From Holosporales bacterium (lineage in GTDB: Bacteria > Pseudomonadota > Alphaproteobacteria > BNTO01): a stretch of DNA of 41,363 bases. This document shows positions 579-37,345 of the stretch, piece after piece. Under the pieces are notes generated by a model. The model saw only the letters and a program-made list of their open reading frames with translations, was not told the origin of the DNA and searched no databases. Position 1 is the stretch's first letter, and every line of letters begins with the position of its first letter. The stretch covers positions 1 through 41,363 of the forward strand of contig JAIRNW010000055.1 of the NCBI GenBank assembly GCA_031257795.1, read 5' to 3'. The position numbers and the translations under genes were made by a program.

Positions 579-723
579 TTGGACCTCTTTCCAAACTCTT
601 CAAAATCAGTCTTTGGGTACGTCGATCCGGTTCGAAACTCACGTACATCTAGGTACGCTCCGCTTCTGTGCTCCGTGTCTCCTTCCCAAAATTCTGATTT
701 TGAAGGTTTCGAAAGAGGTCCAT
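579..723 (+). repeat. family-A palindromic MITE-like element, copy 1 (~145 bp)
   Basis: Terminal inverted repeats ggacctctttcCaaaCTcttcaaaatcag ... ctgattttgaaggtttcgaaagaggtcc. Near-identical copies at 18793, 30812 and 34819 (inverted), and a half copy at 17021. Confidence 0.9.
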
Positions 724-843
724 TGTTATGACTTCAGCATCGGAAAGTTTTGGAGGGAACCCTCGCTTTCTTAATGGGATACATTCCTTCAAAAAATCAT
801 TAATACGAACGTAAATTTCAATGATAATACCTTCTATTAGCAT
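649..843 (-). pseudogene. N-terminal fragment of an IS5/IS982-like DDE transposase, truncated by the family-A repeat
   Basis: MLIEGIIIEIYVRINDFLKECIPLRKRGFPPKLSDAEVITM resembles the conserved N-terminus of IS5/IS982-type transposases (..DDF...R.RPPKLSD.E.IT.). The homologous part is about 724..843; below that the frame reads into repeat 579..723. No DDE catalytic domain follows. Confidence 0.6.
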
Positions 844-943
844 TGTTGTGCTTCCAATGGACTGCGAATATCACAGAGAGACACAAACAATGCTCACGCG
901 AAAGTCAGATTCTTGCCGCCAGCTAAAAAGTTGCACACTGCGT

Positions 944-1018
944 GTTAACAGCGTTGTCTTAATAAATCACACTGAATAAAGGCGGAAGAATAAACCAGAG
1001 ATTTTTGGAATCGTGGGG
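944..1018. repeat. 75-bp repeat, probable IS terminal region (copy 1)
   Basis: gttaacagcgttgtcttaataaatcacactgaataaaggcggaagaataaaccagagatttttggaatcgtgggg recurs at 9059..9133 with a few mismatches. It lies about 100 bp upstream of the transposase fragment start. Confidence 0.7.
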
Positions 1019-1162
1019 AGTCGAGCACAAAATAATATTTTTCTATATATTTGCTTTTATTCACGCTATAATCAGCATGTGATAGATCGTATAATAAACG
1101 CTTTCGGATCATCAGAAAACAGAGTTTTTGTAAGGGAAAGCGTAAAAACGAGGTGTGTTGGA

Positions 1163-1840
1163 ATGAGTGACAAGAAACAAGAAAAATCTGCAGCCGAACC
1201 TGAAAAAGTGGTGGATGGATCCGCCTCAGCGGGCACGACGTTGCTTTCATATTTGGCATATTTTTCTCTTTTTTGCCTCCCATGTCTTGTTCTCTCGGCA
1301 TTGCTGCTTATGGTCGCGGTCCCGCGAGCCTACATTTTCTTTATTCTGACAGCTGGCGTATCTGAACTGCTCGGCGCCAGTGTTTTAAAGTACACGGCCA
1401 ATCTGCTGGCAAAACGAGGCCCACCGGCTACGTCAAAAGGCCGCCTTTTCCTGATATTGACGATTTTTGTAGGAAATTTGTTTTTGTCCTTCGTTCCAGG
1501 AATGTGCTTCCTGCATTTGCTAACCATTGGGAAAATCGTTAGAGACTTAACGTGGGGAATTGGTATAAACGCCTTCTTATTCCTTGGAATTGGCCTGTTG
1601 ACGTACGTTCGGATTCTTCAAAAATCTCAGCAAAGTCAGAACACTTGGTTGATTTTTACGAATTATTTGGCTTTCTTCTTTTTAATTTTCTGTCCGATGT
1701 GTTGGACTGGATTTTTCTTTCTGCTTAAAGCATCTGATTTGTTCAGTTTTATGCTACTGCCCGGAATTGCCGTGGGTTTATGGCTAGGAACAAGCCTGCT
1801 GTGGCACGTGAGGATGAAGGAGAGCAGAGGGAAAGCATGA
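1163..1840 (+). CDS. hypothetical multi-pass inner-membrane protein
   Basis: ORF 1013..1840; the likely start is the ATG at 1163 (MSDKKQEK...). Charged N-terminus followed by about 6 hydrophobic helices. No family recognised. Confidence 0.5.
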   Translation: MSDKKQEKSAAEPEKVVDGSASAGTTLLSYLAYFSLFCLPCLVLSALLLMVAVPRAYIFFILTAGVSELLGASVLKYTANLLAKRGPPATSKGRLFLILTIFVGNLFLSFVPGMCFLHLLTIGKIVRDLTWGIGINAFLFLGIGLLTYVRILQKSQQSQNTWLIFTNYLAFFFLIFCPMCWTGFFFLLKASDLFSFMLLPGIAVGLWLGTSLLWHVRMKESRGKA

Positions 1841-1980
1841 GACCGGAGCCCAAGCAATGGACATATGCTTGAAGAACAATAAAAAAATTTAAGTATAGCG
1901 CAAGAAATAAATTAGTAGTATAGTGAATTGTGAGCATAATGCAGCATGTAGTCTGCCGGTTTTTATTTAAGGAGTTTATT

Positions 1981-2673
1981 ATGACGAACAATGAGTTTTT
2001 TGTGGCTGGGCATAAATCGCGAGCATTTTGTGGCTGGTGGAATAGGTGTCTTTTGTGCGTTTTCGCTTTGTTGGGTTTTGTTTTCACATTTTTAACTGGG
2101 AATGCCGCCACAGGCCCAGCCAAAGTTATGGTTTTTGGAGAGGAGAAGATAGCCGGAGAAAGAACAATAAAGGTAGACGTAATTAAAAAATTAACTGGAG
2201 AGCAGGCAACGCCCTATGGACGTAGTTCCCTGCGCTTCGTTACAAGAAGCAGTCAAGAAGTTAACGTCACATTGTGTGATACCGCAGCGCAAGAGAGATA
2301 TGAAAGTATGTTGAAGAGGTATTCGGATGGAGCCACCGCAGTTGTTTACGTGTTAACCAAAGATGGCGAAAACTATATTAACTATGACCTGGATTTCGCG
2401 GGGAGGCTAGGCAAAGCCAAGGAGAAGCTCGCAAAAGTAGTACCTAACGGACAGCCAGTAATTATTGTTGTTCAGGATGATGGGTATGAATCTGACTCGG
2501 AGGTTCGTGAGGCGGTTTCTGCTACTTTCGGAGACGATACGGCCGTTGTTTTGGTGGATATTAATACTGGTCAAGGAATAGACGCACTTAAGGAAACAAT
2601 TGGCGAAACTGTAATTACAGCCAGACAACAAGCTGCCACACAGCAAAGGGCAGCTCCTATAAAGCGCAGGTGA
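1981..2673 (+). CDS. membrane-anchored or secreted small-GTPase-fold (Rab/Ras-like) protein with degenerate nucleotide-binding motifs
   Basis: aaggag SD lies 6 nt upstream of the ATG at 1981. N-terminal hydrophobic helix CLLCVFALLGFVFTFLTG. KVMVFGEEKIAGERT occupies the P-loop position. LCDTAAQERYESM resembles Rab WDTAGQERF. C-terminal INTGQGIDALKETI resembles the G5 region of TRAFAC GTPases. The NKxD position is replaced by QDDG. Confidence 0.5.
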   Translation: MTNNEFFVAGHKSRAFCGWWNRCLLCVFALLGFVFTFLTGNAATGPAKVMVFGEEKIAGERTIKVDVIKKLTGEQATPYGRSSLRFVTRSSQEVNVTLCDTAAQERYESMLKRYSDGATAVVYVLTKDGENYINYDLDFAGRLGKAKEKLAKVVPNGQPVIIVVQDDGYESDSEVREAVSATFGDDTAVVLVDINTGQGIDALKETIGETVITARQQAATQQRAAPIKRR

Positions 2674-2701
2674 TGCGAGGTATTTTAATTCTTTCACAAA
2701 A

Positions 2702-36096: not shown

Positions 36097-36215
36097 CCCC
36101 AACAAAGTCTGCGACTTTGCCGGGAACACGATGTTTCGGCAGGAGCAGTACGTCGATGCCGCTCTTCACCTGCGCTACGAGGCTTCTGCTATCAATTCTC
36201 TATTGGACTATGTAT
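36095..36215. repeat. family-C element (C module plus core plus B-like right end)
   Basis: agccccaacaaagtctgcgactttgccgggaac...ggcaggagcagtacgtcgatgc...ctgctatcaattctc. Confidence 0.8.
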
Positions 36216-36281
36216 AAATATTCTTAGTCATATTGAGCCATGGCTTCGTTGCAACGGAGTTTGTATTCATAGGAGAGTGAG

Positions 36282-36764
36282 ATGGCCACTAAAGGATTGG
36301 CACATAATTTGAGGCTGGCGTTATACCAGCCAGAAATAGCGCAGAACGTTGGCGCGATGTTACGCGTGTGCGCTTGTTTCGGTGTGTCTATGGACATCAT
36401 TGAGCCAACTGGCTTCCCATTCGACAGTAAACGTATGCGGCGGGCGGGAATGGATTACATTGATTTTGTCAAAGTAGAAAAGTATTTGTCTTTCGAGGAC
36501 TTCCACGCATGTTGCGGCCGAAGAATCGTACTGCTTGACGTGAAGGGGGAGCAGTCGTTGCACGATTTCAAATTCCGTCCAGAAGACGTAATCATGGTTG
36601 GACAAGAAGGCAGTGGTGTTCCAGAGGCCGTTTTCGAAAAGTGCGAGCAACGCGTGAGGATCGATATGCTCGAGAACATGAGGTCGCTTAACGTCAGCGT
36701 TTCTGCAGCGATCGCCATATTTGAGGCAATTCGCCAACAGTCTCTAACAACAGGCCAACAGTAG
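36282..36764 (+). CDS. trmL: tRNA (cytidine/uridine-2'-O)-methyltransferase, SpoU/TrmL family
   Basis: LALYQPEIAQNVGAMLRVCACFG, VGQEGSGVP and SLNVSVSAAIAIFEA (SPOUT knot motifs). 160 aa. Confidence 0.85.
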   Translation: MATKGLAHNLRLALYQPEIAQNVGAMLRVCACFGVSMDIIEPTGFPFDSKRMRRAGMDYIDFVKVEKYLSFEDFHACCGRRIVLLDVKGEQSLHDFKFRPEDVIMVGQEGSGVPEAVFEKCEQRVRIDMLENMRSLNVSVSAAIAIFEAIRQQSLTTGQQ

Positions 36765-36772
36765 GGAACATG

Positions 36773-36900
36773 CACAGTCACAAAAAGTTTGCGAGTTCGT
36801 CGCCCCAGCTCGAAACTCATGTACGTTTAGTACACTCCGCTTCTGCGCTCCGTTTCTCCTGGGAAAACCTCAATTTAAATCTTATGTCAACGGGTTCTTA
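36773..36900. repeat. composite element (B left terminus, core, E right terminus)
   Basis: cacagtcacaaaaagtttgcgagttcgtcg ... caatttaaatcttatgtcaacgggttctta. The last bases provide the infA TAA stop on the minus strand. Confidence 0.82.
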
Positions 36901-37116
36901 TTTTTGCCGAAATGTTATCCGCCCCTTCGTCAAATCGTATGGCGTCATCTCAACTGTAACTTTATCTCCGACTAAGATCTTGATTTTGTTTTTCCGTACA
37001 CGCCCGGATGTGTGCGCCAGAATCACACAATCGTTTTCCAGTTTCACTCGAAACATCGCATTCGGGAGCAGTTCAGTAACAACTCCAGATAGTTCTAGCA
37101 GGTCCTCTTTCGGCAT
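36898..37116 (-). CDS. infA: translation initiation factor IF-1
   Basis: [72 protein letters not shown] is canonical IF-1. Confidence 0.97.
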
Positions 37117-37170
37117 AAAACAATACTAATAACACACCACCACTACACTCTAGTACTTTTTACTATAGAA

Positions 37171-37345
37171 TGTCACAAAAAACGCATACACCCAGTCATA
37201 AAAAGTTTGCCGGTTTGTCGACACGGCCCAGTGGACCGTGCGCACCAAACCACAAAAAGTTTGCGGTTTGTTTATCCCCGGCCGCAAAAGCTTGTGAGTT
37301 AAGAACCTGTTTATACCCAGTCATCGAAAGAATTGAGGGGGGAGG
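37171..37345. repeat. cluster of family-B terminus fragments
   Basis: cccagtcataaaaagtttgccgg, accacaaaaagtttgcgg, and atacccagtcatcgaaag. Confidence 0.65.

Follow-up and report, generated by a model that had tools for sequence, protein, structure and literature searches.

The window analysed here, the whole 41.4-kb contig JAIRNW010000055.1 of a bacterium assigned to the Holosporales, is interspersed with imperfect palindromes of 110-180 nt, which very probably form a superfamily of non-autonomous, hairpin-forming selfish elements of the type of Rickettsia palindromic element 1 (RPE-1), carried by a Holosporales-like intracellular alphaproteobacterium. RPEs are a textbook case of selfish DNA residing within protein-coding genes, and to our knowledge the mechanism by which they move has never been explained; RPE-1 of Rickettsia was reportedly described by Ogata and colleagues in Science in 2000 (290:347). 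New in this case are the host lineage, the density of the elements, and the presence of diverged subfamilies that expose a conserved core with co-varying arms; the kind of element is already known.

Relationship of the repeats to RPE-1

A first-pass annotation of this DNA, made from its letters, sorted the repeats by their terminal modules into types A, B, C, E and F and noted a resemblance to RPEs. The relationship proved stronger than a resemblance, both in the peptides that can be read from the copies and in their DNA, including the core of the B copies. The peptide of the A copy at 18790 scored 41.2 bits (E 1e-10) against the NCBIfam model TIGR01045, named "RPE1", whose cut-off is 30, and the peptide of a composite of E and A sequence at 16979-17157 was also above the cut-off with 32.7 bits. 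The A copy at 577 (25.4 bits) and the E-type copy at 18945 (23.0 bits) fell under it, yet their matches were significant. Read in all six frames, the B, C and F copies matched none of the NCBIfam RPE models.

A protein search with the open frames of an A copy returned 16 proteins with 57-97% identity to the A-element peptide, mostly from NCBI records named "MAG: Holosporales bacterium" (MAG, metagenome-assembled genome); six are JGI proteins. Nine of the 16 carry the NCBI name [quoted passage not shown], and the automatic annotation of NCBI thus already labels such open reading frames (ORFs) as RPE1 in sister MAGs. The other matches include truncated NrdG-activase, CcrM-like and ISAs1 proteins, each of which ends in the repeat. 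Furthermore, a peptide profile built from Holosporales sequences only matched 144 proteins among 1.84 billion representatives, and those looked up included RPE1 proteins of Rickettsia (R. honei, and Rickettsia endosymbionts of Cimex and others). Two proteins found by this profile, P0206 (E 5.5e-7) and P0223 of R. honei (E 3e-6), reach 60.6 and 92.8 bits, respectively, on TIGR01045.

At the DNA level, the R. honei element (L009:3001-3160) is colinear with the A copies, with 67.5% identity over 157 nt, termini included. Common to both are the termini GACCTCTT..GAAAC and the core GGAGACACGGA.C.CAGAA... / GTACGTGAG.ATTCGAG.ACCGGAT.GACGTAC, and the long hairpin into which the A copies fold is also formed by the R. 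honei element (z -7.4). It is matched by the full DNA profile of the window's repeats at E 7e-14 and by a profile of B copies only at E 7e-6, the latter profile also matching the A copies at E 1e-11 to 1e-14. The A family is in fact roughly equidistant from R. honei RPE-1 (67.5%) and from the B copies of its own genome (55-63%). A B-armed copy with the core GDTERRSGAYLEGREHSSTGST, to which the RPE1 model gives 23 bits, occurs in the sister-MAG protein P0212, which was among the matches listed in a search with the concatenated six-frame peptides of B copies.

The A family is RPE-1 by sequence and architecture, and B, C, E and F are diverged relatives of RPE-1 that have in common a central core of about 60-70 bp and differ in their outer arms. 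Because of the model match, the alignment with R. honei DNA and the matches of the B-only profile, all copies are taken as one RPE-1-related superfamily. The first-pass annotation had held that a catalogue match would remove the novelty of the family, and TIGR01045 and the R. honei element are such matches.

The host is another matter. RPE-1 calls for a Rickettsia or another member of the Rickettsiales, and the nearest named relatives here are Holosporales: the closest named homologues of the window's MurC are from "MAG: Holosporales bacterium" records, with identity of at most 54%. This mismatch is a difference in host range, not in the element. The Holosporales have been argued to have become intracellular independently of the Rickettsiales (PMC6447387). 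Related copies in GTDB genomes were found in only two "Holosporales bacterium" MAGs, Nc350_bin147 and Nm470_bin96, whose names suggest termite-gut samples; a termite-gut clade is mentioned for the Paracaedibacteraceae (PMC11909080). The exact pattern of the A terminus had no match in GTDB genome contigs and none in JGI metagenome contigs, and no copy was present in 21 kb each of two relatives, L001 and L002, with MurC 49-51% identical and GC of 31-36%, which are distant, so that their lack of copies carries little weight. The metagenome scan with peptide alignment yielded a sole, distant locus from a high-GC organism (L003, on the 335-kb contig ERZ1034375 NODE-1, GC 58%). At 10024-10070 this locus has a short palindrome, with the apex GCTCACGTAC...GTACGCTCCGC as in the RPE-1 core.

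No description of RPEs in Holosporales was found in the literature searched, and a 2025 review of the Holosporales does not use the words palindromic, repetitive or RPE. A second, distant RPE host makes it possible to ask what is conserved in the element (in this window the core and not its ends), which genes the hosts share, and whether the elements were inherited or transferred. It is possible, although we consider it doubtful, that RPE-1 is not specific to Rickettsia and moves or has moved between the Rickettsiales and the Holosporales, as unrelated intracellular lineages, with a core of about 60 bp that would be recognised by trans-acting machinery and arms that would be kept complementary through a hairpin-dependent process. 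If so, the gene sets common to RPE-1-bearing Rickettsia and Holosporales would point to the mobilising enzyme. As for annotation, many of the short "RPE1 domain-containing proteins" of these MAGs are probably translated spacers.

Copies in the window

For detection, 20 copies were oriented and aligned into an nhmmer DNA profile, which at a threshold of E<1e-3 found 24 copies or fragments in the window; the same profile had no match at E<=1 in 20 shuffled windows. All copies listed in the first-pass annotation were recovered by self-BLAST and repeat search, so that the dispersed palindromic repeats are present where they had been placed, from the first copy at 577-726 to the last fragment at 37312-37350. 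The claim that they fill almost every intergenic region also agrees with what was found, since a copy or a fragment is present in 17 of the 18 spacers that exceed 100 nt. The copies sum to 2,898 nt, in line with the earlier estimate of about 3 kb. They occupy 7.0% of the window and, with the gene model used here, 43% of its intergenic bases, a very large share although not most of the non-coding DNA as had been supposed.

The copies are given below one per line. For A copies, the plus strand is the one on which the left arm GGACCTCTTTC... comes first, the RPE1 peptide frame lying on the opposite strand. In comparisons, A30808 designates the copy at 30811-30960, B26877 that at 26880-26998, B25483 that at 25487-25598, and B17171 that at 17173-17298.

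577-726, plus: A copy of RPE-1 type, about 150 nt; nhmmer E 4e-26; peptide 25.4 bits against TIGR01045
3697-3737, plus: isolated E-terminus fragment, 6 nt past the bioB stop codon; repeat search and direct check
6539-6666, plus: B copy in frame within murC (murC on the minus strand); nhmmer E 1.7e-27
7503-7632, plus: copy with C insert, filling the dnaN-murC spacer jointly with the next; nhmmer E 2e-11
7606-7710, minus: divergent copy whose termini are its own, 7 nt away from the dnaN stop codon; nhmmer E 4.5e-16
8937-8976, plus: B-terminus fragment; repeat search, nhmmer weak (E 0.068)
11609-11728, plus: B copy, 1 nt past the rnhB stop codon and 44 nt before tRNA-Cys; nhmmer E 9e-20
14845-14970, minus: B copy over the last 21 nt of ORF 14383-14865; nhmmer E 6e-28; DNA hairpin z -7.4
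16979-17157, minus: composite whose outer termini are E, with an A left arm and an RPE-1 core, overlapping the cysS stop codon; peptide 32.7 bits on TIGR01045; fold z -7.7
17173-17298, minus: B copy with type-2 apex; nhmmer E 7e-32; RNA fold z about -8 on both strands
18790-18942, plus: A copy; peptide 41.2 bits on TIGR01045 (cut-off 30); nhmmer E 4e-31
18945-19062, minus: E-type copy that has an E left terminus and an RPE-1 core and is separated by 1 nt from the dnaK stop codon, its right arm truncated against the neighbouring A copy; nhmmer E 1e-16; 23.0 bits on TIGR01045
21262-21366, minus: truncated copy that has a B terminus and a C insert, located upstream of dnaE; nhmmer E 5e-7
25487-25598, minus: B copy filling the convergent DUF4280/permease spacer, 2 nt from either stop codon; nhmmer E 7e-28
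26880-26998, plus: B-armed copy whose left core is of RPE-1 type, with 1 nt between it and the permease start codon; nhmmer E 5e-29
28803-28960, plus: B copy with C insert; nhmmer E 2e-17
28965-29085, minus: F-terminus copy; nhmmer E 1.7e-14; inverted termini confirmed
30811-30960, plus: A copy over the stop codon of a Sel1-repeat gene; hairpin -65 kcal/mol, z -12; 67.5% identity to R. honei RPE-1
about 31627-31714, minus: decayed B half copy in frame within thrS; nhmmer match 31672-31702, E 6e-4; local alignment to the B left arm
33068-33103, minus: B fragment; nhmmer E 1.6e-4
33112-33236, minus: B copy in the thrS/ABC-F spacer; nhmmer E 5e-24
34817-34970, minus: A copy, 9 nt past the ABC-F stop codon; 97% complementary to 30811-30958; nhmmer E 1.3e-30
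34999-35040, minus: B fragment; nhmmer E 3e-5
36095-36214, plus: copy that starts at the C insert, without left terminus, overlapping the stop codon of ORF 35125-36096; nhmmer E 2e-15
36770-36900, plus: chimera, B on the left and E on the right, filling the convergent spoU/infA spacer; nhmmer E 2e-24; hairpin lost (z -1.25)
37187-37225, 37243-37269 and 37312-37350, plus: three B-terminus fragments; repeat search, nhmmer E 1.9e-4 for the first

All the terminal modules named in the first-pass annotation were located at the positions given for them. The A terminus has nine exact matches against zero expected by chance, and the repeat search places the B terminus in six to nine copies. The C insert is exact at 28844 and 36097 and degenerate at 7546 and 21303. 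The E terminus is found at 3701, 17126-17152 and 36872-36898, with diverged versions, recognised by reading of the sequence, at 16982 and about 19030, and the F terminus forms an inverted pair at 28966 and 29071. The central palindromic core stood as described, except that its apex, given before with a fixed spacing of five nucleotides, is GTAC-N4-6-GTAC.

A copies are 91-96% identical to each other and B copies 56-80%, with many fragments among the latter. By these identities, the A copies are young and the B copies old and decaying, and the window holds a recent burst of A elements together with older, diverged subfamilies. Adjacent or overlapping copies are frequent (7503/7606, 16979/17173, 18790/18945 and 28803/28965).

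Hairpins, gene ends and termini

Intact copies fold as one long hairpin, that of a 150-nt A copy having -65 kcal/mol and z -12, and those of B copies z -2.7 to -8.3. [quoted passage not shown] In a consensus hairpin of 30 pairs, pairing is found in 90.7% of the cells and falls to 38-51% if partner columns are shifted relative to each other, and 16 of the 30 pairs have compensatory changes, many of which separate subfamilies and are thus not independent events. The covariation score was reached by none of 500 shuffles. Thus, although the arms change in sequence, complementarity between the two arms of a copy is kept.

The position of the copies relative to genes is uneven: 15 gene 3' ends lie at -21 to +17 nt of a copy, with five stop codons overlapped, and just five gene starts have a copy within 60 nt. 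Where the spacer separates tandem genes, the copy abuts the stop codon of the upstream gene, and the gap is left before the next gene. Because the copy at 26880-26998 lies 1 nt upstream of the permease start codon, the ribosome-binding region of this gene must lie in the repeat. At the other end, a short gene of the minus strand at about 36897-37126, recognised by eye as resembling infA (IF-1) and below the 80-aa limit of the ORF list, has its stop codon inside the E terminus of the copy at 36770-36900. Overall, several gene ends and gene lengths have been shaped by the repeat.

Such placement raises the question of whether the host keeps the hairpins for a role at 3' ends, as a stabiliser like the repetitive extragenic palindromic (REP) sequences and bacterial interspersed mosaic elements (BIMEs) or the ERIC repeats, as a terminator, or as a protein-binding site; this would be compatible with a selfish origin. 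The excess of gene ends over gene starts, the copies set against upstream stop codons, the covariation that preserves the stem, and spacers devoid of separate canonical terminators all suit a host role. Purifying selection that removes insertions from promoters or ribosome-binding sites, however, explains the same placement equally well, and the copies do not behave as terminators: the scan for intrinsic terminators revealed no enrichment, almost no overlap with the copies, and no T run after the stems. Relative to the abutted gene, nine copies have the same orientation and six the opposite one, which is no bias. Copies also occur in divergent, promoter-side spacers and within ORFs, and many are truncated or unfolded. 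Nor do they match Rfam, in which only tRNA reaches the gathering score over the whole window, and a search of 16900-19100 at an E-value threshold gave only chance miRNA-like matches (E >0.3). A host role is therefore held to be unlikely, and the presence of both orientations, of fragments and chimeras, of stop codons in the RPE1 frame and of three frames in use leads us to infer that the repeats are selfish rather than host-selected.

A different question is how the termini came to differ. The first-pass annotation proposed that they are swapped on a common core, possibly by several mobilisation systems that act on one cargo; spelled out, this would mean that each terminus is recognised by its own system and that the combinations are functional. 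The conserved core, the diverged arms and a few mosaics are indeed there. A30808 and B26877 are 82% identical in the core (86% in the left core) and 52% in the arms, so that the core is the better conserved part, and B25483 and B17171 have arms 87% identical with a left core of only 52% (Fisher p=0.001), a pattern that is real mosaicism. The apex is of two types, each of which is found with B arms and also with the C insert. Reading and alignment bear out the two composites reported earlier, with E termini around an A arm and core at 16979-17157, and a B left and an E right terminus at 36770-36900; moreover, the A-arm/E-terminus junction of the former recurs in the sister-MAG protein P0128.

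Functional combinations of modules do not follow from this. The A and B arms can be aligned over about 26 nt next to the core as diverged homologues, and much of what had appeared as different termini is thus divergence. The type-1 apex and core are also those of Rickettsia RPE-1 and, from this sequence comparison, are probably ancestral, so that B arms on an A core need no swapping. Termini are mismatched in two copies. The chimera at 36770-36900 has lost its hairpin (z -1.25) and has the appearance of a dead recombinant, not of a combination of modules that works; in the composite at 16979-17157, only the E termini sustain the fold (z -7.7), and the A arm is bulged out. Each mixed form is present as a single copy in the window, in which Pfam scans detected no transposase-like gene, no Y1-transposase or RAYT gene, no cognate insertion sequence (IS), and no other candidate enzyme. 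Several mobilisation systems on one cargo are thus improbable, more so than a host role.

For the reading preferred here, a selfish RPE-1 superfamily, the following sequence of events would account for the data. The elements would spread in trans by means of an enzyme encoded outside the window, which would probably act on a hairpin or cruciform and recognise the conserved core rather than the termini. Copies would survive only where they do little harm, that is, in positions just past a stop codon and in loops at the protein surface. Mosaics and mismatched termini may then arise when copies that are neighbours, or that lie one within the other, recombine or undergo gene conversion at their homologous cores; the structure of 16979-17157, for instance, is exactly what would remain if an A copy had been nested within an E copy and a core-to-core deletion had followed. 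The mixed forms are read as recombination products because of the lost hairpin, the composite structure and the frequency of adjacent copies.

Several points weigh against this account. No mobilising enzyme was found in the window, and transposition of the copies is deduced. Perfect ATT...ATT flanks are found in only two of four A copies, which does not establish a target-site duplication, and the B copies begin and end in TATA, itself palindromic. Since the B, C and F copies match no NCBIfam model, their link to RPE-1 rests on DNA profiles and the shared core. The placement at stop codons and the covariation could also reflect a host-selected role, as discussed above, and the taxonomy of the host depends on the NCBI names of related MAGs.

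Compared with known systems, the likeness to RPE-1 extends to length (about 150 nt), the long imperfect hairpin, the termini and core, the peptide matching the RPE1 model, the dispersal in spacers, and the in-frame insertion in housekeeping genes. The differences are the host, which is Holosporales-like and not Rickettsia, the density in the window (7% of the DNA, 43% of intergenic bases), and the accompanying B, C, E and F subfamilies, of which B, C and F are outside the RPE1 protein model. RPEs in general are 100-150-bp repeats of Rickettsia, with one family in Wolbachia, that are frequent in ORFs and expand in lineage-specific bursts (PMC3767692, PMC1779305, PMC10969869). RPE-2 to RPE-10 and the Wolbachia palindromic elements, compared here by published description, are likewise 100-150 bp long, live in intracellular alphaproteobacteria with several families per genome, and show lineage bursts (PMC3767692, PMC1779305). 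RPE-4, -6 and -7 are reported to have an origin other than that of RPE-1, -2 and -3 (PMC3767692), whereas the subfamilies described here have one core in common with RPE-1.

Bacterial MITEs such as Correia, ERIC and Nezha (PMC10969869) are also short, non-autonomous and multi-copy, with terminal inverted repeats, a location in spacers and occasional in-frame fusions. In typical MITEs the termini are conserved and bound by the transposase and the interior is variable, opposite to the elements of the window, in which the centre is conserved and the termini vary; in addition, the latter lack a clear target-site duplication, and the window contains no IS cognate to them. REP sequences and BIMEs are extragenic hairpin repeats of 20-40 nt that follow stop codons, are associated with RAYT transposases, and are not known to insert in frame in genes. 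They share with the elements of the window the hairpins directly past stop codons, and a mobilisation that recognises structure would fit the covariation seen here; however, the present units are 110-180 nt long, occur in frame within genes, and are not accompanied by a RAYT/Y1-transposase gene in the window.

Copies inside genes and other features of the window

Two copies that are absent from the first-pass annotation reside in genes. MurC is 539 aa long, against about 470 aa in its homologues, owing to a single in-frame insertion of 59 aa (nt 6537-6713) that is missing from 11 homologues and of which 44 residues are the B copy at 6539-6666 read from the minus strand. In the AlphaFold2 model of MurC, in which the enzyme is well folded (pTM 0.78), residues 258-313 are coil with pLDDT below 50 (25-29), between the strands 247-256 and 315-324, a low value that is expected anyway for a segment without homologues in the alignment; the predicted structure is consistent with a surface loop. 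The threonyl-tRNA synthetase (ThrRS) has about 29 extra residues (204-232) with no counterpart in the structures 6vu9 and 1qf6, and the corresponding thrS DNA (about 31627-31714) aligns to the B left arm, making it an in-frame relic. The Rickettsia PheT with its RPE-7 relic is a parallel in another aminoacyl-tRNA synthetase gene.

In the sister Holosporales MAGs, the repeat is found in frame in DapF, a HemN-like protein, MurG, KsgA, CdsA, TruA, EngB, PRPP synthetase and NrdG, with one to four in-frame copies in each of these proteins other than NrdG. In DapF, MurG, KsgA, CdsA and TruA, copies are read in the RPE1 frame. The protein P0137 contains four repeat-derived stretches, the DapF protein P0147 has two copies in the RPE1 frame and one in another frame, and P0212 has three B-armed copies in three frames.

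That the repeat is mainly a protein-coding "RPE1 domain" selected for its peptide is very improbable, even though one frame matches a curated protein-domain model and the repeat lies within many housekeeping proteins of sister MAGs, and is largely refuted by frame usage: several copies (A30808 and A577) have stop codons in the RPE1 frame, and MurC and ThrRS read two other frames so that host genes use three different ones. In addition, most copies are intergenic, and the MurC insertion is predicted as a disordered loop with pLDDT 25-29.

Other candidates for in-gene copies did not hold. An element inside dnaE was rejected, as alignment to E. coli DnaE places the true start at nt 21484, with the copy upstream; one inside the gene of the major facilitator superfamily (MFS) transporter was not established, the start of the ORF being uncertain; and length differences of FtsA and RecR were rejected as derived from the element. 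RecR (11852-12553) has, relative to solved structures, a Gly/Ala-rich insertion of 17 residues, HQRGAGDAAEGGGTA, that has no similarity to the repeat.

The window has a GC content of about 48% and, by Pfam and tRNA scans, is dense in housekeeping genes. Those identified are bioB, a secretin gene, murC, dnaN, ftsA, rnhB, tRNA-Cys, recR, metG, cysS, dnaK, dnaE, a Trp/Tyr permease gene, yggU, an MFS transporter gene, thrS, an ABC-F gene, a SpoU methylase gene, infA, and the gene of a 1335-aa repeat protein. Between a B copy and cysS there is a stretch of 537 nt without genes (14973-15509), with no Rfam match at the gathering score; it contains an inverted repeat of 65 nt (15176-15240 / 15336-15400) that is 78% complementary.

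The 1335-aa ORF (37351-41358, minus strand) is made up of periodic repeats of 33 and 66 nt, equivalent to units of 11 and 22 residues, and has only a weak Apolipoprotein-like Pfam match. Because its start is 5 nt from the end of the window, the ORF may continue past it. Finally, a direct repeat of 82 nt (944-1025 / 9059-9140), 91% identical and unrelated to the RPE-like family, has both of its copies upstream of plus-strand ORFs, orf1013 and ftsA.

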